A stretch of 64,000 nucleotides of DNA from an uncultured Gemmatimonadales bacterium (GTDB lineage: Bacteria; Gemmatimonadota; Gemmatimonadetes; Gemmatimonadales; GWC2-71-9): positions 64,001 to 128,000 of the forward strand of contig CAVSQW010000009.1 in the NCBI GenBank assembly GCA_963730185.1, given 5' to 3'. Under the pieces are notes generated by a model, which was not told the DNA's origin, did not search any database, and saw nothing but the letters and a program-made list of their open reading frames with translations. Made by a program: the position numbers and the translations under genes. Shown one piece after another: positions 1-16,961 of this stretch (positions within the stretch are counted from its first letter, which is position 1; the number at the start of each line of letters is the position of its first letter).

Positions 1-472
1 GCTCCCGCTCGTTGAGGCCGAACCGGTGCAGGGAGTCGAGGATGAACCCGGTCGACGGGGTCAGGAGCGCGAGCGAGACGAGGAGCGAGGGCCGGAGGTC
101 GAGCTCGAACAGGTGTTGCACTAGGTAGGCGCCGACGAAGAGAGCGGCGACGCCCACCGCCAAGTGTTGGATCAAAACCCGCGCCTCGCGGCGGAGCACC
201 GCGAAGTCGACCTCGAGTCCGGCAAAGAGAAAGAGGGAAACGATCCCGAGCGTCGCCAGGAGGCCGATGGTCGAGTCGCCGTGATAGAGGTGGAAGGCCA
301 GCCCGAACAGCGCCCCCAGCCCGACGCTGGTGATCGCCTGCGGCAACCGATACCGTTGAAGAAACCGGGGCAGCACGAAGAGGACGAACAGCAACAGCAC
401 GTAGCCGAGCTCCGAACGGAGGGCATCGGCGATCGCGGTGGTCCCGCTCAGGAGCTGGCTGATGGCATCCAT
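1..472 (-). CDS. Cation:proton antiporter (CPA2/Kef-like), N-terminal part; runs off window start
   Basis: Manual translation from ATG 472: MDAISQLLSG...LGYVLLLFVLFVLPRFLQRYRLP...TLGIVSLFLFAGLEVD...ALLTPSTGFILDSL; multiple TM helices and the LF.aGLE.D CPA2 motif; not in the ORF track. Confidence 0.75.
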   Translation of the reverse strand, partial: MDAISQLLSGTTAIADALRSELGYVLLLFVLFVLPRFLQRYRLPQAITSVGLGALFGLAFHLYHGDSTIGLLATLGIVSLFLFAGLEVDFAVLRREARVLIQHLAVGVAALFVGAYLVQHLFELDLRPSLLVSLALLTPSTGFILDSLHRFGLNERE

Positions 473-574
473 GGGCTCGATCTCGGGCGGAAGCTACCGC
501 CGGGCCCCGGCCCGAGGCCAGCCACGCCGACTCCCGTTTGGGACTACATTTCCGGTCCAAACACCCGAGAGCCA

Positions 575-3145
575 GTGACGCTTTCCGTATCCGACGACAC
601 CCCTCTGCTCAGGCAGTATCGGGACATCAAGTCGCGCCACCGCGACAAGATCCTCTTTTTCCGGATGGGGGACTTCTACGAGATGTTCTACGACGACGCC
701 GAGGTGGCGTCGCGCGTCCTGAACATCACCCTCACCGCCCGGGGTGACGGGGTGCCCTTGGCGGGCGTGCCGGTCAAGGCGGCCCAAGAGTACCTCCGTC
801 AGTTCGTCGCCCAGGGCTACCGGGTGGCCATCTGCGAACAGGTGGAGGACCCCAAGAAGGCCAAGGGAATCGTCAAGCGCGAGGTGATCGAGACCATCAC
901 GCCTGGGGCGCTCCTGGAGGAAGACTGGGTTCCGGGCGGTCGCAACAACTTCATCGTGGCGGTGAGCCCCGCGGCCCGGGGGACGGCCGGACTGGCGGCG
1001 ATCGACCTTACCACGGGCGAGTTCCTGCTCGAGTGCGTCCCGGGCGAGCGGGTGGCCGAGGCGCTAGGTCGCCTGGCGCCGGCCGAGGTCGTGTCGGTCG
1101 GCGGGGCCGCGACACCGGCTGAGCCCGAAGCCATGCGGACGGCCCGGGAAGCCTGGGAGTTCGACGCCGAGCTGGCCGCCGACGAGCTGACCCGGCGCTT
1201 CGGCCTGGCCTCCCTGGACGGGCTCGGCCTCGGAGCAAACGACGCCCCCGCCGTCGGCGCGGCGGGCGCCCTGCTCCGCTACCTGTCCGAGCTCAAGCCC
1301 GGCGGGCTGCCCCACCTCCTCCGACCGACCGTCCGCCGGCCCGATCACTACCTCTGGCTCGACGAGATGACCCGCCGGAACCTGGAGCTGGTGGAGCCGC
1401 TCCGCGCCGGGGCCCGCGGGGTCACCCTGCTCGAGGTGCTCGACCGGACCCTCACCCCGATGGGGGCGCGCCTGCTTCGGGCCTGGCTGCTCTCTCCCCT
1501 CCGCGACGTGGCTGCGATCGACCGACGGCTCGACGCCGTCGCAACCGCCGTGGAGCGAACCGAGCCCCGCGCCGCGGTGCGCGAGGCCCTGGACGGGGTC
1601 CGCGACCTGGAGCGCCTGGCCGGACGGGCGGCGGCGGGTCGGGCCAACCCCCGCGAGCTGGCGGCCCTGCGCGACTCGTTCCACCGGCTTCCGGGCGTGC
1701 TGGCCGGCCTGGACCAGCTGGGCCCGGACGCCGCCGCGCTGGCCGAGGCGAGGGTCGAGCTCGATCCGCTCGAGGACCTGGCGGCGGAGCTGAGCCGGGC
1801 CCTCGAGGACCGCCCCCCGGTCAATCTCGTCGACGGCGGAGTGATCAAACCAGGTTATGACAACGACCTCGACGAGGCCCGCTCGCTCCGGGACGGCGGC
1901 CGACGGTTCATCGCCTCGCTCCAGGAGCGGGAGCGGGAACGGACCGGCATCGGCTCGCTCAAGGTCGGGTACAACAGGGTCTTCGGATACTACCTCGAGG
2001 TCACCAAGACCCACGCCGGCCGGGTGCCGCCCGACTACGAGCGTCGCCAGACCCTCACCTCCGCCGAGCGGTACGTCACCCCCGAGCTCAAGGACTACGA
2101 GGCCAGGGTGCTCGGCGCCGAAGAGCGGATGACGAGTCGCGAGGCCGAGCTGTTCGCTGCCCTCCGAAGCCGGGTCGGCGCCGCCATCGGCCGGATCCAG
2201 CACACCGCCCGGGTGCTGGCCCAGCTCGACGTCTGGTGCGGCCTGGCCGAGGCCGCGGTGCAGAACCGCTACGTGCGCCCGGTGATCACCGCCGACTACC
2301 AGCTCCGGCTGACCGCCAGCCGGCACCCCGTGATCGAACGGATGATGCCGCGCGAGTCGTTCATCCCGAACGACGTTCAGTTCGATCAAGCCAGCCGGGT
2401 CCAGCTGGTCACCGGACCCAACATGGCCGGCAAGTCCACCATCCTCCGGCAGATCGGCGTCGTGGTCATCATGGCCCAGATGGGCTCATTCGTCCCGGCG
2501 GAGGCCGCGACCATCGGGGTCACCGACCGCTTGTTCACCCGAGTCGGCGCCAGCGACAACCTGGCCCGGGGCCAGTCGACCTTCATGGTCGAGATGAGCG
2601 AGACCAGCGCCATCCTCCACAACGCTACCGCTCAGAGCCTCGTGCTGCTCGACGAGATCGGCCGGGGAACCTCGACCTATGACGGCGTGGCGATTGCCTG
2701 GGCGGTCACCGAGCACTTGCACGACCAGATCGGCTGCAAGACCATGTTCGCCACCCATTACCACGAGCTGATGCAGCTCCCGGAGCGGCTGGCCCACGCC
2801 CGAAACCTCAACGTGGCGGTCCGCGAGACCGGCGACACCGTGGTCTTCCTGCACCGGCTCGAGCCCGGTGGCACCGATCGGTCCTACGGCATCCACGTGG
2901 GCCAGCTGGCCGGGTTGCCCGCCGAGGTCGTCCGCCGGGCCGAAGCCGTGCTCCTCACGCTCGAAGGCGAGCACCGGGTCGTCCCCGGCGAGGTGCCCGA
3001 GCCCGATACCCGGCAGCTCGCCCTCTTCGCCGAAGCCGACCCGGTGCGGGACGAGCTCTCCACCCTCGACCTGAACGCGCTGACGCCCCTCGAGGCGTTG
3101 AACCGGCTGGCCGACCTCCAGCGGAAAGCCCGGGAACCCAAGTGA
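575..3145 (+). CDS. mutS: DNA mismatch repair protein MutS
   Basis: TPLLRQY, FFRMGDFYEMF, Walker A TGPNMAGKST, STFMVE, DEIGRGTST, FATHYHEL; C-terminal clamp motif QLALF (3014-3028); GTG 575 chosen because the upstream ORF part overlaps the divergent antiporter. Confidence 0.97.
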   Translation: MTLSVSDDTPLLRQYRDIKSRHRDKILFFRMGDFYEMFYDDAEVASRVLNITLTARGDGVPLAGVPVKAAQEYLRQFVAQGYRVAICEQVEDPKKAKGIVKREVIETITPGALLEEDWVPGGRNNFIVAVSPAARGTAGLAAIDLTTGEFLLECVPGERVAEALGRLAPAEVVSVGGAATPAEPEAMRTAREAWEFDAELAADELTRRFGLASLDGLGLGANDAPAVGAAGALLRYLSELKPGGLPHLLRPTVRRPDHYLWLDEMTRRNLELVEPLRAGARGVTLLEVLDRTLTPMGARLLRAWLLSPLRDVAAIDRRLDAVATAVERTEPRAAVREALDGVRDLERLAGRAAAGRANPRELAALRDSFHRLPGVLAGLDQLGPDAAALAEARVELDPLEDLAAELSRALEDRPPVNLVDGGVIKPGYDNDLDEARSLRDGGRRFIASLQERERERTGIGSLKVGYNRVFGYYLEVTKTHAGRVPPDYERRQTLTSAERYVTPELKDYEARVLGAEERMTSREAELFAALRSRVGAAIGRIQHTARVLAQLDVWCGLAEAAVQNRYVRPVITADYQLRLTASRHPVIERMMPRESFIPNDVQFDQASRVQLVTGPNMAGKSTILRQIGVVVIMAQMGSFVPAEAATIGVTDRLFTRVGASDNLARGQSTFMVEMSETSAILHNATAQSLVLLDEIGRGTSTYDGVAIAWAVTEHLHDQIGCKTMFATHYHELMQLPERLAHARNLNVAVRETGDTVVFLHRLEPGGTDRSYGIHVGQLAGLPAEVVRRAEAVLLTLEGEHRVVPGEVPEPDTRQLALFAEADPVRDELSTLDLNALTPLEALNRLADLQRKAREPK

Positions 3146-11637: not shown

Positions 11638-11795
11638 CGACCTCCGTGCTTCGAGGCGATGCGGACGGTGAGCCGTTTCCGCCCCTTTTTCCGGCGGCGG
11701 CTGAGCACGGCACGACCCCAACGATCGGCCATCCGGGCACGGAACCCGTGACGGTTCACTCGTTTGCGATTTCGGGGCCGGTAGGTCGGCTGCAT
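11634..11795 (-). CDS. rpmH: 50S ribosomal protein L34
   Basis: Manual translation [53 protein letters not shown] (53 aa); SD GAGGAG; missing from the ORF track. Confidence 0.97.
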
Positions 11796-11858
11796 ATTAC
11801 TCCTCGACGCCTCCAGTGAGCCCGAAAAGCTAGCCCAGCCACGGGCTTGCGGTCAAGG

Positions 11859-11887
11859 TTGACTTTTCCACACGCGGGTCGTAGAAT
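11859..11887 (+). promoter_or_regulatory. dnaA promoter with embedded DnaA box
   Basis: TTGACT(11859-64)-N17-TAGAAT(11882-87); TTTTCCACA at 11864-11872 matches TTWTNCACA. Confidence 0.8.
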
Positions 11888-11939
11888 CGCCTCCCCCTTC
11901 CGACCTTCCCCTACGAGTCAGGGTTTGCACCGAGGCGAA

Positions 11940-13334
11940 ATGCAGCTCTCCCCCAAAGAGGCGTGGAAGCGCATTCTCGACGAGGCCCGCCGCGAGCTTC
12001 CCGAGCAGGCCGTCGCCACCTGGCTGGCCCCGGCCGAGCCGCTCGAGCTCCAGGACGGCAAGCTCACCCTCGGGGTTCCGGACGAATTCGCGGTCAAGTG
12101 GAACGAGACCAAGCACGGCTCCCTGCTGTCCCGGCTGGCCGAACAGGTCGTGGGTCAACGGATCACCGTGGCCTTCCGGGTGCCGGATGACCGGTTCCAG
12201 CGCCCCCAGATCGACTTCTTCGTAGCCCAACCGGACGACGACGGGCCGGTCACGCCGGCCGTCCGCCCGACCCACTCGCCGCTCCCGCTCAACGAGCGTT
12301 ACACCTTCGATTCGTTCGTGATCGGCAAGTCCAACGAGCTCGCGGCGGCCGCCGCTTATGCGGTCGCCGAGACCCCCGGCAAGACCTACAACCCGCTGTT
12401 CATCTACGGCGGCACCGGCCTTGGCAAGACGCACCTGATGCAGGCCATCGCCCACGCGGTTCTCGGGAAGGCCCCGGGAACCCGTCTGGTCTACGTCGGC
12501 GCCGAGCATTTCATCAACGAGGTGATCGAGGGCATCCACGGTCGGACCATGCCGGAGCTCCGGCGACGATACCGCACCGAGGTGGACCTGTTCCTCGTCG
12601 ACGACGTGCACTTCCTGGAAGGCAAGGAGGCAACCCAGGAGGAGTTCTTCCATACGTTCAACACGCTGTACGAGGCCCAGAAGCAGATCGTCCTGACCTC
12701 GGACCGGCCCCCGAAGGACATGCCCGGACTCGAGGCACGCCTGGTCAGCCGGTTCGAATGGGGCATGGTCGCCGACATCGGCCAGCCCGACTTGGAACAC
12801 CGGATCGCCATCCTCCGGAAGAAACAAGAGCAGGACCACCTCGAGACCACGATTCCCGACGAGGTCCTGAGCTTCATTGCGGAACATGTGTTTTCGAATG
12901 TCCGGGAGCTCGAGGGTTGCATCATCAAGCTGCTCCTCTACGCCTCGCTCCGGCATCGCGAGGTCACCATCGACCTGGCCCGAGAAGCCCTCGCGGATCG
13001 GATTCGTCCCGGGCCCCAGCTCCACGAGGGCACGCCCAAGGCCTTGCCGACGATCGACAAGGTGCAAGACGTCGTGGCCCGCCGGTGGGGCGTGACGCCG
13101 GAGGGACTCCGCTCGAAGGCGCGGATCAAGAGCTTGACGGTGCCCCGACAGATCGCGATGTACCTCGCCCGCGAGGTGTTGAACATGCAGCTGGTCGAGA
13201 TCGGGCAGGCGTTCGGCGGGCGCGATCACTCGACCGTCATTCACAGTGTGGACAAGGTCCAGCGGCAGCTGTCGCGCGACCGTGCATTCCGAGACCGAGT
13301 CGACTCGGCGCGGGCCGAGTTGACGAGCGGGTGA
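11940..13334 (+). CDS. dnaA: Chromosomal replication initiator DnaA
   Basis: YTFDSFVIGKSN, NPLFIYGGTGLGKTHL, DDVHFL, TQEEFFHTFN, RLVSRFEWG, NVRELEG, FGGRDHSTV. Confidence 0.98.
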   Translation: MQLSPKEAWKRILDEARRELPEQAVATWLAPAEPLELQDGKLTLGVPDEFAVKWNETKHGSLLSRLAEQVVGQRITVAFRVPDDRFQRPQIDFFVAQPDDDGPVTPAVRPTHSPLPLNERYTFDSFVIGKSNELAAAAAYAVAETPGKTYNPLFIYGGTGLGKTHLMQAIAHAVLGKAPGTRLVYVGAEHFINEVIEGIHGRTMPELRRRYRTEVDLFLVDDVHFLEGKEATQEEFFHTFNTLYEAQKQIVLTSDRPPKDMPGLEARLVSRFEWGMVADIGQPDLEHRIAILRKKQEQDHLETTIPDEVLSFIAEHVFSNVRELEGCIIKLLLYASLRHREVTIDLAREALADRIRPGPQLHEGTPKALPTIDKVQDVVARRWGVTPEGLRSKARIKSLTVPRQIAMYLAREVLNMQLVEIGQAFGGRDHSTVIHSVDKVQRQLSRDRAFRDRVDSARAELTSG

Positions 13335-13392
13335 AGGCGAGAGAACCCGCGTCACCCGCCAGAGTGTTCGCAGCGATGGGGAGTGTGATCGC

Positions 13393-14505
13393 ATGAAGTT
13401 CACCATCACCCGAGAGAAGCTGCACGAGGGCCTGGGAGCGGTGGCCGGAAGCGTGCCGTCCAAAGCCACGCTTCCGGTCCTCTCTCACCTTCTCGTGGAA
13501 GCCACCAAGGATGGGATCCGCCTGTCCGGCACGGATCTGGACATCGCCGTCACCACGGTGATCCCGGCCGAGGTCAACCAGGAGGGGGCCGCGATGGTGC
13601 CCGCCCGGAAGCTCGCCGAGATCGTGCGGGAGCTGCCCAGCGCCGCGATTCGGGTCACCAGCTCGGGCGAGCAGCGAGTCCAGATCGAGTGTGGACGCTC
13701 GCGTTTCAAGTTGCTCGGTCTCTCCCGCGAGGAGTTTCCGGCCTTTCCGGCCGTCACGTTCGAAGGCGGCTGGAACGTCGTGGCCAGGGACCTTCAAAAG
13801 CTCATCACCCATGTGGCCTTCGCGGCCAGCACCGAGGAGAGCCGCCCGATCCTGAACGGGGTGCTCTGGGAGCTCCGAAGCGACCGGATGCGGATGGTCG
13901 CCACCAACGGGCATCGGCTGGCCCGCATGGACATGCCGCTCAAGGGTGCCGGCCAGGCCGACCTGATCGTGCCGCCCAAGGCCCTCGATCAGATCCGCCG
14001 ACTCTTCGGCCCGGACGAAGAGGTCGAGATCGCCCGGAGTGACAACCACCTCGGATTTCGCTCGGCCGCAACTCAGGTGTTCACCCGGCTCATCGAGGGG
14101 CCGTACCCGCCCTTGGAGGTTCTCGACAAGCTACTGCGCGAGAACGACAAGATCGTGACGGTGGACCGGACCGCCTTCACGTCGGCCATCCGGCGGATGA
14201 GCATCGTCGCCAGCGACCAGACCCACCGGATCCGCCTGGCGTTCTCCAACGGGGCCTGCAAGCTCTCGGTCACCACGCCTGATCTGGGCGACGCCCAGGA
14301 AGAGATGTCCGTCTCCTACGACGGCGATCCCCTGGAGATTGGATTCAACGCCTCGTACCTGTTGGAGGTCCTCAAGTTCATGCCGACCGACGAGGTAAGG
14401 CTGAGGTTCAAGGCTCCTGAACGCGGGGCCACGTGTGAGCCGGTGGGCTGGGACGACCCGGCGAGCTACCTCGCCCTGGTAATGCCTCTCCGGTTGCTCG
14501 ATTAG
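13393..14505 (+). CDS. dnaN: DNA polymerase III beta sliding clamp, divergent copy 1
   Basis: SGTDLD, ESRPILNG, VATNGHRL, IGFNASYL, VMPLR; atypical LIEGPYPPLEVLDKLLREN loop. Confidence 0.95.
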   Translation: MKFTITREKLHEGLGAVAGSVPSKATLPVLSHLLVEATKDGIRLSGTDLDIAVTTVIPAEVNQEGAAMVPARKLAEIVRELPSAAIRVTSSGEQRVQIECGRSRFKLLGLSREEFPAFPAVTFEGGWNVVARDLQKLITHVAFAASTEESRPILNGVLWELRSDRMRMVATNGHRLARMDMPLKGAGQADLIVPPKALDQIRRLFGPDEEVEIARSDNHLGFRSAATQVFTRLIEGPYPPLEVLDKLLRENDKIVTVDRTAFTSAIRRMSIVASDQTHRIRLAFSNGACKLSVTTPDLGDAQEEMSVSYDGDPLEIGFNASYLLEVLKFMPTDEVRLRFKAPERGATCEPVGWDDPASYLALVMPLRLLD

Positions 14506-14894
14506 GTCGATCCGACTGAAACAGCAATGGTTCCGCGGTCGCGCCTCACTCGACTGTGTTTCTTACGGTGTGGACAAAGGTCGCGCTTCGGTTGTCGCCC
14601 GACCACGCGCTCCGACAACGAGTTGACTCGGCTCGCGGGCAAGCCGACCAAGTGGCCGACCATGCTGGGTCGTGTGAGTTGCTGTGGGTGACGTGGAAGA
14701 CGCTGGAAAACCCCACGCCTCTCCACGAAATCCGCACTGCCAACAAACGACGTTCTGGCGATGGGGACGGTAAGCATCGTGCCGGTGGGGAGTTGGGCGA
14801 CCGCTCAACAATGGCGCCCCTCTACGATTACTACGAGTTCTATTAAACTGTTGCAGTCTTGTAGAAATATGGCGAGTTCGCGGAGCGTGAGCGC
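14506..14894. other. Probable replication origin oriC (DnaA boxes, GC-rich spacer, DnaA-trios, AT-rich tract)
   Basis: TGTGGACAA 14569-77, degenerate boxes 14683-14727, GGCGCCCCT followed by CTA CGA TTA CTA CGA (14822-36) and CTATTAAA, directly upstream of dnaN. Confidence 0.8.
14530..14635 (+). pseudogene. Frameshifted relic of the dnaA 3' end (domain IV)
   Basis: Aligns with dnaA 13211-13312 at about 80/106 columns with three small indels; partial translation KVALRLSPDHALRQRVDSAR vs DnaA KVQRQLSRDRAFRDRVDSAR. Confidence 0.85.
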
Positions 14895-16004
14895 ATGAAG
14901 TTCACCATCACCCGAGAGAAGCTGCACGAGGGTCTGGGAGCGGTGACCGCAAGCGTGCCGTCCAAGACCACGCTTCCGGTGCTCTCCAACATCCTCGTGG
15001 AGGCCACCCAGGACGGGATTCGCCTGTCCGGCACCGACCTGGACATCGCCGTGACGACGGTGATCCCGGCCGAAGTCGATCAGGAGGGTGCCACCACCCT
15101 CCCTGCCCGGAAGCTTGCCGAGATCGTGCGGGAGCTGCCCAGCGCCGCGATTCGGGTCACCAGCTCGGGCGAGCAACGGGTCCAGATCGAATGCGGCCGA
15201 TCGCGGTTCAAGCTGCTCGGACTATCGCGGGAGGAGTTTCCCTCGTTTCCGGCGGTTAAGTTCGAGGGCGGCTGGAACGTCGTGGCCAAGGACCTTCAAA
15301 AGCTCATCACCCATGTGGCCTTCGCGGCCAGCACCGAGGAGAGCCGCCCGATCCTGAACGGGGTGCTCTGGGAGCTCCGGAGCGACCGGATGCGGATGGT
15401 CGCCACCAACGGGCATCGCCTGGCCCGCATGGACGTGCCGCTCAAGGGTGCCGGGGGTCAGGCCGACCTGATCGTGCCGCCCAAGGCCCTCGATCAGATC
15501 CGCCGCCTTTTCAGGCCGGACGAGGAGATCGAGATCGCCCGGAGCGACAATCACCTGGGGTTTCGATCGGCGGGCACCCAGGTGTTCACCCGACTCATCG
15601 AGGGGCCCTACCCGCCTTACGAGCAGGTCATTCCCCGCGAGAACGATAAGATCGTGACGGTGGACCGGACCGCCTTCGCGTCGGCCATCCGGCGGATGAG
15701 CATCGTCGCCAGCGACCAGACTCACCGGATCCGCCTGGCGTTGACCAACGGGGCCTGCAAGCTTTCGGTCACCACGCCCGACCTGGGCGACGCCCAGGAA
15801 GAGATGTCCGTCTCCTACGACGGCGACCCCCTCGAGATTGGGTTCAACGCCTCGTACCTGCTCGAGATCTTGAAGGCAATGCCGACCGACGAGGTTCGGA
15901 TGACCTTCAAGGCGCCGGAGCGCGCGGCCACCTGTGAGCCCGTCGGCTGGGACGACCCGGCTAGCTACCTGTCGTTGGTGATGCCACTCCGCCTGCTGGA
16001 CTAG
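14895..16004 (+). CDS. dnaN: DNA polymerase III beta sliding clamp, canonical copy 2
   Basis: Same motifs as copy 1 with the canonical LIEGPYPPYEQVIP loop. Confidence 0.97.
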   Translation: MKFTITREKLHEGLGAVTASVPSKTTLPVLSNILVEATQDGIRLSGTDLDIAVTTVIPAEVDQEGATTLPARKLAEIVRELPSAAIRVTSSGEQRVQIECGRSRFKLLGLSREEFPSFPAVKFEGGWNVVAKDLQKLITHVAFAASTEESRPILNGVLWELRSDRMRMVATNGHRLARMDVPLKGAGGQADLIVPPKALDQIRRLFRPDEEIEIARSDNHLGFRSAGTQVFTRLIEGPYPPYEQVIPRENDKIVTVDRTAFASAIRRMSIVASDQTHRIRLALTNGACKLSVTTPDLGDAQEEMSVSYDGDPLEIGFNASYLLEILKAMPTDEVRMTFKAPERAATCEPVGWDDPASYLSLVMPLRLLD

Positions 16005-16822
16005 CGCGACCCGTTCGAGTCGGATTCCGGATCGTCGCTGTCGAGTGGAACCCGGATCGGTTCTCCCTGCATCCGTCGGAGAATCAGTTGCTGGCGCCAC
16101 CGCATCCGGCCCGCCCGATAGCGAGGGTTTGAGCTGAGCGGGAAGGGGAGCGTTCCAGCGAGAGCCGCGGCCTCGTCGGCGGTCAGGTTGGCGGCCGGCC
16201 GGCCGAAGTAGTACCGGCTGGCAGCCTCCACCCCCCAGATCTCCGGGCCGAACTCGACGACGTTGAGGTAGAGCTCCAACACCCGGTTCTTGCCAAGCGC
16301 CCACTCCAACCGATAGGCCGTCACCGCCTCCTTCGCTTTCCGAAGTGGGTTCCGCGAGGGGGAGAGGTACAGGTTCTTGGCGAGCTGTTGGGTTATCGTG
16401 CTGGCTCCTCGGATCCGATCCCGGCGCGACCACGCCCGTCCCAAATCCCGGAGCATCTCGTCGCGATCCCGCGGATTGGTCCAGGTGAAGTCGTCCCTCC
16501 GGTAGCCGAGCGCCTCCCGGATCGCTTGGTAGTCGATTCCGCCGTGTTCGTAGAAGCGGTGGTCCTCCGCCACGATCGCGGCCGCTAGGACGCCGGGTGC
16601 GATCGCGCTGAGGGGCACCGGCTGATAGAGGCGCGGAAGGACCCCGTCCTTGGCGTCACGACGGCGCTCCGGATGGGACGCCATCTGGGCTGCCTGGGAT
16701 CGTCGGAGGCTCATGAACGCGGTCTGATGGGGCCAGAACCAGCGGTACCAGATTGGGGGAGGCCAGACCGCCACCAGCCAGAGCGCGAAAGCGGCCCCGA
16801 ACAGGAGAGCGAGCTTGACCAG
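16001..16822 (-). CDS. mtgA: Monofunctional biosynthetic peptidoglycan transglycosylase (start uncertain)
   Basis: EDHRFYEHGG, RGASTITQQLAKNL, RKAKE, LELYLNVVEFG, GVEAAS; track start 16948 lies beyond a terminator so is unlikely; CTG 16822 tentative. Confidence 0.85.
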   Translation of the reverse strand: MVKLALLFGAAFALWLVAVWPPPIWYRWFWPHQTAFMSLRRSQAAQMASHPERRRDAKDGVLPRLYQPVPLSAIAPGVLAAAIVAEDHRFYEHGGIDYQAIREALGYRRDDFTWTNPRDRDEMLRDLGRAWSRRDRIRGASTITQQLAKNLYLSPSRNPLRKAKEAVTAYRLEWALGKNRVLELYLNVVEFGPEIWGVEAASRYYFGRPAANLTADEAAALAGTLPFPLSSNPRYRAGRMRWRQQLILRRMQGEPIRVPLDSDDPESDSNGSR

Positions 16823-16892
16823 GGCCCTTGGCCACCTGCGCCGGATCGGCCGTTCAGGAGCACCAACAGCTACTACTAATTTGTCAGGAGAA

Positions 16893-16927
16893 GCAAAGGG
16901 GCGCTCTGTCTCCGAGCGCCCCTTTGC
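16893..16927 (-). terminator. Hairpin terminator after the secreted hypothetical gene
   Basis: GCAAAGGGGCGCTC-N7-GAGCGCCCCTTTGC perfect 14-bp stem. Confidence 0.7.
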
Positions 16928-16961
16928 GGTTGTCGTGGACCCGAACACGACGACGGCGCCG

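Follow-up and report, generated by a model that had tools for sequence, protein, structure and literature searches.

Why does a bacterium carry two nearly identical sliding clamps around its replication origin, and why is the ligand pocket of one of them rebuilt? The question is raised by a 64,000-nucleotide stretch (hereafter the window; contig CAVSQW010000009.1 of assembly GCA_963730185.1) from an uncultured Gemmatimonadales bacterium, in which two dnaN genes, each encoding a beta clamp, stand in tandem around oriC. Judged from the sequence, the copy adjoining dnaA (copy 1) would be a second clamp that has been kept and whose ligand selectivity is altered, and it would probably act in mixed dimers with copy 2; we give this reading a probability of about 0.62.

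The pocket wall of copy 1

The gene order is dnaA, dnaN copy 1, a decayed remnant of the dnaA 3' end, oriC and dnaN copy 2, followed by a convergent mtgA-like gene. Copy 1 (13393..14505, + strand) encodes 370 residues and copy 2 (14895..16004, + strand) 369; they score 297.6 and 325.3 bits with TIGR00663, both above the dnaN cut-off of 137.65 bits, and no further dnaN match occurs in the genome of the window (G000; completeness 82%, contamination 0.37%). Of the 371 columns of the protein alignment 337 are identical, 31 carry substitutions and 3 are gaps, exactly as an earlier note on this DNA had estimated by hand (two intact tandem genes, about 91% amino-acid identity). The nucleotide sequences are 88.8% identical, with a synonymous divergence (dS) of 0.39, a non-synonymous divergence (dN) of 0.048 and a pair dN/dS of 0.12.

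The largest difference lies in one loop, as that note had claimed. After PYPP (starting at 14101 in copy 1 and at 15606 in copy 2), copy 2 continues with the canonical YEQVIP (15618..15635, + strand) and copy 1 with LEVLDKLL (14113..14136, + strand), i.e. a rebuilt domain II–III linker that is two residues longer; the coordinates given are those of the segment that differs between the loops. Tyr, Val and Pro had been described as replaced and two residues as inserted: the insertion stands, while the residue replacing Val depends on how the insertion is aligned.

Val, Ile and Pro of this loop are found in 96/96 close single-copy clamps (one row being gapped), Tyr in 94/96 and Gln in 93/96. Among 126 distant clamps the Val site holds V in 112, I in 11 and A in 3, never L or G, and the loop length is unchanged in 124. 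Two relatives that also carry the tandem (G010 and G003, copy 2 of the latter being split over two contigs) have another copy-1 loop, YEPGIP, which recurs in three further proteins (P0168-P0170). It is identical in these five proteins, the others being 92.7–95.4% identical to that of G010.

The accessible text of PMC11139829 places R246 and V247 (E. coli numbering) among twelve residues of pocket subsite I; the list used here, mapped through a P. aeruginosa alignment, comprises R152, L155, T172, G174, H175, R176, L177, P242, R246, V247, V360 and M362. In either lineage only the R246 and V247 sites are changed. Copy 1 departs from the canonical subsite at these two positions and equals copy 2 at the other ten, in line with the claim that the remaining cleft residues are kept in both copies. 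According to the parts of PMC11621423 available, Arg246 has a role in binding the DNA polymerase III (Pol III) peptide, and replacement of Val247 alters the contacts of griselimycin.

In G000 copy 1 also has an Ala-to-Gly change (14425..14427, + strand) two residues from a subsite II position. This site, which we take to correspond to E. coli S346, is Ala in 96/96 close relatives and Gly in 2/126 distant clamps. The change (ERAA to ERGA), already singled out by the earlier note, thus does touch a site invariant in close relatives; its companion, YLSLVMP to YLALVMP, is unremarkable, Ala being the commonest residue there (36/96 single-copy clamps).

A model of copy 1 built on a 128-row alignment predicts a normal three-domain clamp fold (predicted local distance difference test score 97.2, predicted template modelling score 0.92), with LEVLDKLL as part of a helix at 242-250. 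All the hits listed by Foldseek for this model are clamps, with template modelling scores of 0.87–0.94 against solved structures.

At 163 near-invariant sites copy 2 has no change, against 8 in copy 1 of G000, 4 in that of G010 and 3 in that of G003. Four of the eight G000 changes fall among the 7 loop-segment sites of the 163 (p=8e-5), a segment which had been preselected by the earlier note and in which a single mutational event could explain all four. With the subsite I list, this clustering bears out the claim that the changes concentrate on known pocket residues. Residues unseen in 97 single-copy clamps are likewise more numerous in copy 1 than in copy 2: 14 versus 2 in G000 (p=0.004), 10 versus 1 in G010 and 6 versus 0 in G003. 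A19G, considered as a hallmark of copy 1, was rejected since it is missing from the three further YEPG proteins.

Copy 1 might also have been kept simply for more clamp, its pocket wall having drifted unselected, one pocket per mixed ring being enough. One cleft per dimer does support viability in E. coli heterodimers, as the consulted portion of PMC3022782 reports, and multiplication of oriC-dnaN in Mycobacterium smegmatis gives resistance by dosage alone (PMC6761567, PMC11621423, both in part). Copy 1 also changes its amino acids 3-4 times faster than copy 2 (dN 0.036–0.040 versus 0.009–0.012), including outside the pocket. But a freely drifting pocket would hardly leave the other listed residues intact in all copy-1 proteins, nor YEPGIP unchanged in five of them, and both lineages altered the same two positions. 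We regard such a dosage duplicate as a serious competitor, though clearly the less probable of the two.

Retention of copy 1 and rarity of the tandem

Neutral decay of copy 1, the outcome on which the earlier proposal would founder, is not borne out. There is no frameshift in its 1113 bp, against four small gaps in the 111-bp dnaA remnant next to it; the pair dN/dS is low; the GC content at third codon positions is 0.87, like that of copy 2 and dnaA; and between G010 and G003 copy 1 is constrained (dN 0.022, dS 0.376). It is very unlikely, in our estimate, that in the G000 lineage copy 1 is no longer expressed or is dying, its frame having survived by chance. Its eight near-invariant-site changes, compared with three or four in the sister copy-1 proteins, would fit such a fate, as would its singleton sequence and the broken dnaE2 of the same genome. 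However, no stop or frameshift has appeared at a pair dS of 0.39 beside a remnant that has decayed, the ribosome-binding site is retained, the predicted fold is clean, and the loop length is kept in a strain about 94% identical. As to dnaE2, the G000 gene of this type (a second Pol III alpha family gene, at G000:C3:35101-35882; L128, L129) is broken, with both a TAG stop and a change of frame; the dnaE2-like matches in G010, G003, G007 and G017 have no stop.

That the tandem is an assembly chimera of two strains is hardly credible. Completeness of the genome is 82%, and among the contig pieces listed for public runs none covers the whole locus. Yet the layout is repeated in two other species, the first copy carries an altered loop in all three, the dnaA remnant stands at the junction, and contamination is 0.37%. 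A contig of run X1 (216 bases, 14 differing letters, no gap) spans the copy-1 loop region, and other contigs of this run match the spacer and, without gap, the copy-2 loop region; a strain related to G000 thus appears to hold both loop lengths. Taken together, runs X1 and X3 hold pieces that resemble copy 1, the spacer and copy 2 at about 90–97%, none of those listed bridging the locus. The two runs could belong to a single campaign, and X2 and X4 to the source campaign, so that together they amount to at most one independent hint.

The arrangement is found in 3/22 genomes of the genus (G000, G010 and G003), which supports the claim of a fixed two-clamp system, kept across speciation. Another 18 have a single dnaN in a contiguous dnaA-dnaN-mtgA order and G019 has a fragment only. 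The family sample comprised 401 genomes; 374 have a dnaN match and 34 besides G000 have at least two. Fifteen of these 34 were checked. None has an intact tandem, the additional matches being split or frameshifted genes, weak hits or distant paralogs; in the other 19 the best E-values (1e-98 to 1e-160) are weaker than those of the listed full-length hits, and the matches are probably split genes. No locus with two dnaN genes was seen among the best 80 of 519 confirmed metagenome loci (flanks of at most 2.5 kb, many of them short), and no description of a fixed tandem dnaN pair around oriC was found in the literature at the level of listings and abstracts. P0168 and the copy-2-like P0165 both come from 8512-long contigs, which hints at a fourth tandem locus.

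Other irregularities of dnaN were noted in the family. In G236 the dnaN 3' end and downstream DNA are repeated in a short, decayed tandem copy about 220 bp past the single dnaN (L116:3170-3400), which is another small duplication at this locus. A distant second dnaN, 31–40% identical and away from the origin, occurs in L117 (G313), L118 (G096), L119 (G192), G231:C1102 and G305:C562. G305 also has a frameshifted dnaN (G305:C20:5108-6123; pieces of 79% and 63%) besides an intact one on another contig, which is either a second copy or a binning error.

The origin spacer and the history of the pair

The 389-bp spacer between the two clamp genes contains two informative elements. The first, at 14530..14640 (+ strand), is a decayed dnaA 3' end matching 13211-13315 (90/120 identical, four small gaps); its local score of 107 compares with 31±4.6, maximum 42.5, over 100 shuffles. 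On this match we read the remnant as the marker of the 5' edge of a duplicated unit. It is not detectable in G010 or G003.

The second element is a putative unwinding module of oriC (14802..14875, + strand), composed of a degenerate DnaA box (14802-14810), DnaA-trios (14822-14837) and an AT-rich tract. The basal unwinding system is described in the available part of PMC8287927 as a DnaA box, a spacer of at most 16 bp and at least three NAN trios. The module has all three, with a box-trio spacer of 11–12 bp and five trios starting at 14823; its AT content is 63%, against 38% upstream, and it is conserved in relatives. By a strict pattern, a trio-like repeat precedes dnaN in 71/88 distinct single-copy dnaA-dnaN gaps. 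The best DnaA-box match of the spacer (14569) lies inside the dnaA remnant, i.e. outside this module. The cumulative GC-skew minimum falls at about 13,000-16,000 of the window, and with the unwinding signature this upholds the claim that the clamp genes stand around oriC. A second box-plus-CTA-repeat look-alike was seen by eye at 16862-16880, near the 5' end of the mtgA-like gene.

The gap between dnaA and copy 1 is by comparison short: 58 bp (13335..13392, + strand), with a ribosome-binding site at 13378, versus 216–382 bp including a trio module in single-copy relatives (98 loci). No trio module is present in this gap in either G000 or G010. The positions of the remnant and of the module therefore show that the duplicated unit comprised the dnaA 3' end, oriC and dnaN, and that the first unit has lost its origin.

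dnaA itself (11940..13334, + strand; TIGR00362 500 bits, cut-off 343.9) is preceded by a sigma-70-type promoter (11859..11887, + strand) with 10/12 matches, overlapping a DnaA box (11864-11872). It is the sole promoter-like site in 11700-16200 (shuffles gave a mean of 0.3), an interval in which no terminator-like site was seen. Copy 1 is thus probably co-transcribed with dnaA, and the dnaA promoter likely drives both genes jointly. On the other side of the pair, the convergent mtgA-like glycosyltransferase gene (16001..16948, − strand) scores 169.7 bits with TIGR02070, below the cut-off of 182.65, and its start codon is uncertain; relatives usually have it next to their single dnaN. Beyond it, the segment 17820-18210 (− strand) has the look of an RNase P RNA gene, judged by its motifs.

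When was the unit duplicated? In whole-gene trees the two copies of G000 form a pair, as do those of the G010/G003 lineage (support 98–100). The dS between copies of one genome is 0.39 and 0.54, between lineages 0.79–0.96 and for dnaA 0.75–0.78. Among 91 informative sites, 70 group by species, 14 by copy and 7 crosswise. The copy-type sites nevertheless cluster past column 329 (permutation p=0.0002), the last 43 codons holding 7 copy, 2 species and 0 crosswise sites. With a break point at column 329/330 that was picked from the data, the approximately unbiased test rejects the species tree for columns 330-373 (p=0.019; third positions alone p=0.026) and the copy tree for columns 1-329 (p=2e-5). 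A copy-wise grouping at the 3' end and a species-wise one elsewhere are most simply read as a single old duplication followed by gene conversion that spared the repeat edge; these statistics indicate that conversion kept most of both genes alike within lineages.

Separate duplications in G000 and in the G010/G003 lineage form a rival on history and not on function. They would account for the well-supported pairing within each lineage and for the undetectable remnant in G010 and G003, and the G000 remnant resembles its own dnaA at 12 diagnostic sites versus 4, a count that is not polarised. The grouping of the 3' end by copy, which third positions alone and the permutation also give, speaks against them, as does the coincidence they would require in sister lineages, no other tandem having been found in the family sample. 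We consider them unlikely, though not negligible. Under either history the loops were rebuilt separately in the two lineages: ahead of the loop both G000 copies have Pro, and the sister lineage Asn.

Candidate ligands and known two-clamp systems

One unexpected candidate ligand is encoded next to copy 1. The linker between domains I and II of DnaA contains a clamp-motif-like peptide, QIDFF (12207..12221, + strand), conserved as Q[MI]D[FL]F: RPQ[MI]D[FL]F is found just after domain I in 36/37 aligned relatives, with a variable linker behind it. Compared with the clamp-binding consensus QL[SD]LF (PMC11621423, seen in part), the peptide has the Q, a hydrophobic residue, D/S and two C-terminal hydrophobics, and it is conserved within an otherwise variable linker. 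The strict motif pattern occurs at 6 places in 5008 filtered open reading frames of G000, DnaA being one of the six. Irrespective of the duplication, it may be a clamp-binding motif that is built into DnaA across the Gemmatimonadales. At the level of listings and abstracts no literature was found on such a peptide in DnaA as an initiation control. Links between clamp and DnaA are otherwise known through Hda, which acts with the clamp in DnaA's regulatory inactivation (RIDA), and through YabA. A link through a clamp-binding motif would serve the same job, the difference being that here the motif-like peptide lies within DnaA itself. YabA was found in 0/5 genomes, and a search of G000 with DnaA as query gave no short Hda-like gene but just one long protein of two domains, which sits in an unrelated cluster. 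This protein (G000:C2:89191-91947) has two DnaA-like ATPase domains and lies beside small-GTPase and roadblock-like genes, as labelled by eye.

The pair resembles a specialised second clamp and falls outside three described situations, all known to us from partial texts. Bacillus DnaN-2 (PMC3290774) is also one of two clamps per cell and appears deficient for some partners; it is about 40% identical to DnaN-1 and supports replication, and deletion of dnaN-1 gives a mutator. In the window, by contrast, the clamps are 91% identical (337/371, far above a distant paralog), form an oriC-flanking tandem born of a local duplication, and the altered copy adjoins dnaA. GriR and MypR (PMC11621423, PMC10817943) share with copy 1 that they are a second dnaN besides a normal one, and they are linked to pocket ligands, but they lie in an antibiotic gene cluster near transposases. 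The GriR analogy of the earlier note fails on this context: copy 1 is at the origin, its neighbours being dnaA, oriC and mtgA, and the condensation domain of non-ribosomal peptide synthetases (PF00668) was found in 0/5 genomes (73–97% complete; a control matched 4/14). Self-resistance to a home-made peptide was accordingly rejected, no gene cluster standing beside the gene. The amplification selected by griselimycin in M. smegmatis (PMC6761567, PMC11621423) likewise has a repeat unit holding oriC and dnaN; it acts by dosage alone, without mutation and at a fitness cost. Here there are two fixed copies with a dS of 0.39–0.54, i.e. too diverged for an amplicon of unmutated copies (31 substitutions), just one of the origins persists and the pocket has been altered.

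A fourth comparison concerns alleles. Single pocket substitutions, including one at Y249 of the pneumococcal clamp, suppress the toxins RipA and SocB and leave a viable clamp (PMC12795458, in part). These are laboratory alleles of a single gene, unlike the natural second gene copy described here; by offset arithmetic, unaligned, Y249 lies immediately ahead of the rebuilt stretch, on a residue kept in copy 1. A toxin of this kind was not identified in the present analysis.

How could such a pair have arisen? An ancestor duplicated the unit dnaA 3' end-oriC-dnaN in tandem, as the remnant and the trees show. The upstream unit lost its origin, the downstream one retaining origin and standard clamp, and copy 1 would have been kept as a working clamp subunit, probably expressed from the dnaA transcript. 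Two lineages altered the same two linker residues of subsite I in opposite ways, by removal of a side chain (YEPG) or by addition of bulk (LEVLDKLL), and left the other listed pocket residues untouched. Two opposite changes at one spot suggest selection against one ligand, i.e. for losing or weakening its binding with loader and polymerase binding kept. The cell would hold normal, altered and mixed rings, and mixed dimers of copy 1 and copy 2 are plausible.

We divide the probability given to this selective reading about evenly between two kinds of excluded ligand. The first would be an outside pocket-binder (toxin, phage protein or antibiotic), plausible because pocket substitutions suppress RipA and SocB and because griselimycin selects oriC-dnaN amplification. 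The second would be a cellular client, among which the QIDFF of DnaA is the candidate of greatest interest. Should DnaA bind the clamp, initiation control would be upset by a doubled clamp dose, and selection would favour a blinded, dnaA-coupled copy even with no outside agent. The full version of this scheme, in which DnaA docks on the clamp through its linker Q[MI]DFF without Hda or YabA, the dnaA-coupled copy has twice been blinded by selection, and a natural two-subunit clamp with mixed rings, whose pockets would each serve other partners, tunes initiation control apart from fork processivity, is a speculation that we hold to be improbable as a whole.

Several observations weigh against altered selectivity. 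The clients have not co-evolved: the DnaE motif QGSLF is the same in 4/4 genomes, the MutS motif QLALF is the same in G000, G010, G003 and the single-copy G017, and the QIDFF of DnaA occurs in duplicated and single-copy genomes alike; co-evolved clients were therefore rejected for these three proteins. A candidate inhibitor did not emerge: 0/5 genomes had a match to the condensation domain, and SocA/Panacea gave one weak partial match in G010 and none in G000 and G003. Both lineages would share one changed invariant site by chance with a p of about 0.10. Copy 1 also has changes in domain I, outside the pocket (T25A, N32H, T68M), which fits a general relaxation. The split of dS between the copies is too noisy (copy 1 −0.01 to 0.28) for any branch dN/dS to be claimed, and within the protein collection copy 1 of G000 stands as a singleton. 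Finally, the one-cleft result in E. coli means that a damaged pocket could also be tolerated without benefit. Apart from these points, no clamp motif was recovered in DinB or DnaE2, and mutS itself lies in the window as an open frame (125-3142) with a C-terminal QLALF, about 9 kb from the origin.

To the two-clamp system first noticed in this window the present analysis adds a second, different loop rebuild, the dnaA remnant, the conversion history and the DnaA peptide. Division of labour between the pockets of a clamp is a long-standing question in the tool-belt model. The pair is suited to asking which partners need the wall and whether mixed rings divide labour between their pockets: it offers one pocket wall that was rebuilt twice independently and has long been kept in both forms, with an approximately 90%-identical normal control in the same genome each time. 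The accessible part of PMC11621423 regards this pocket as hard to change, many essential partners sharing it. The locus shows a route from transient oriC-dnaN amplification to a fixed, diverged pair, and in the Gemmatimonadales the conserved clamp-motif-like peptide of DnaA suggests a route of initiation control.

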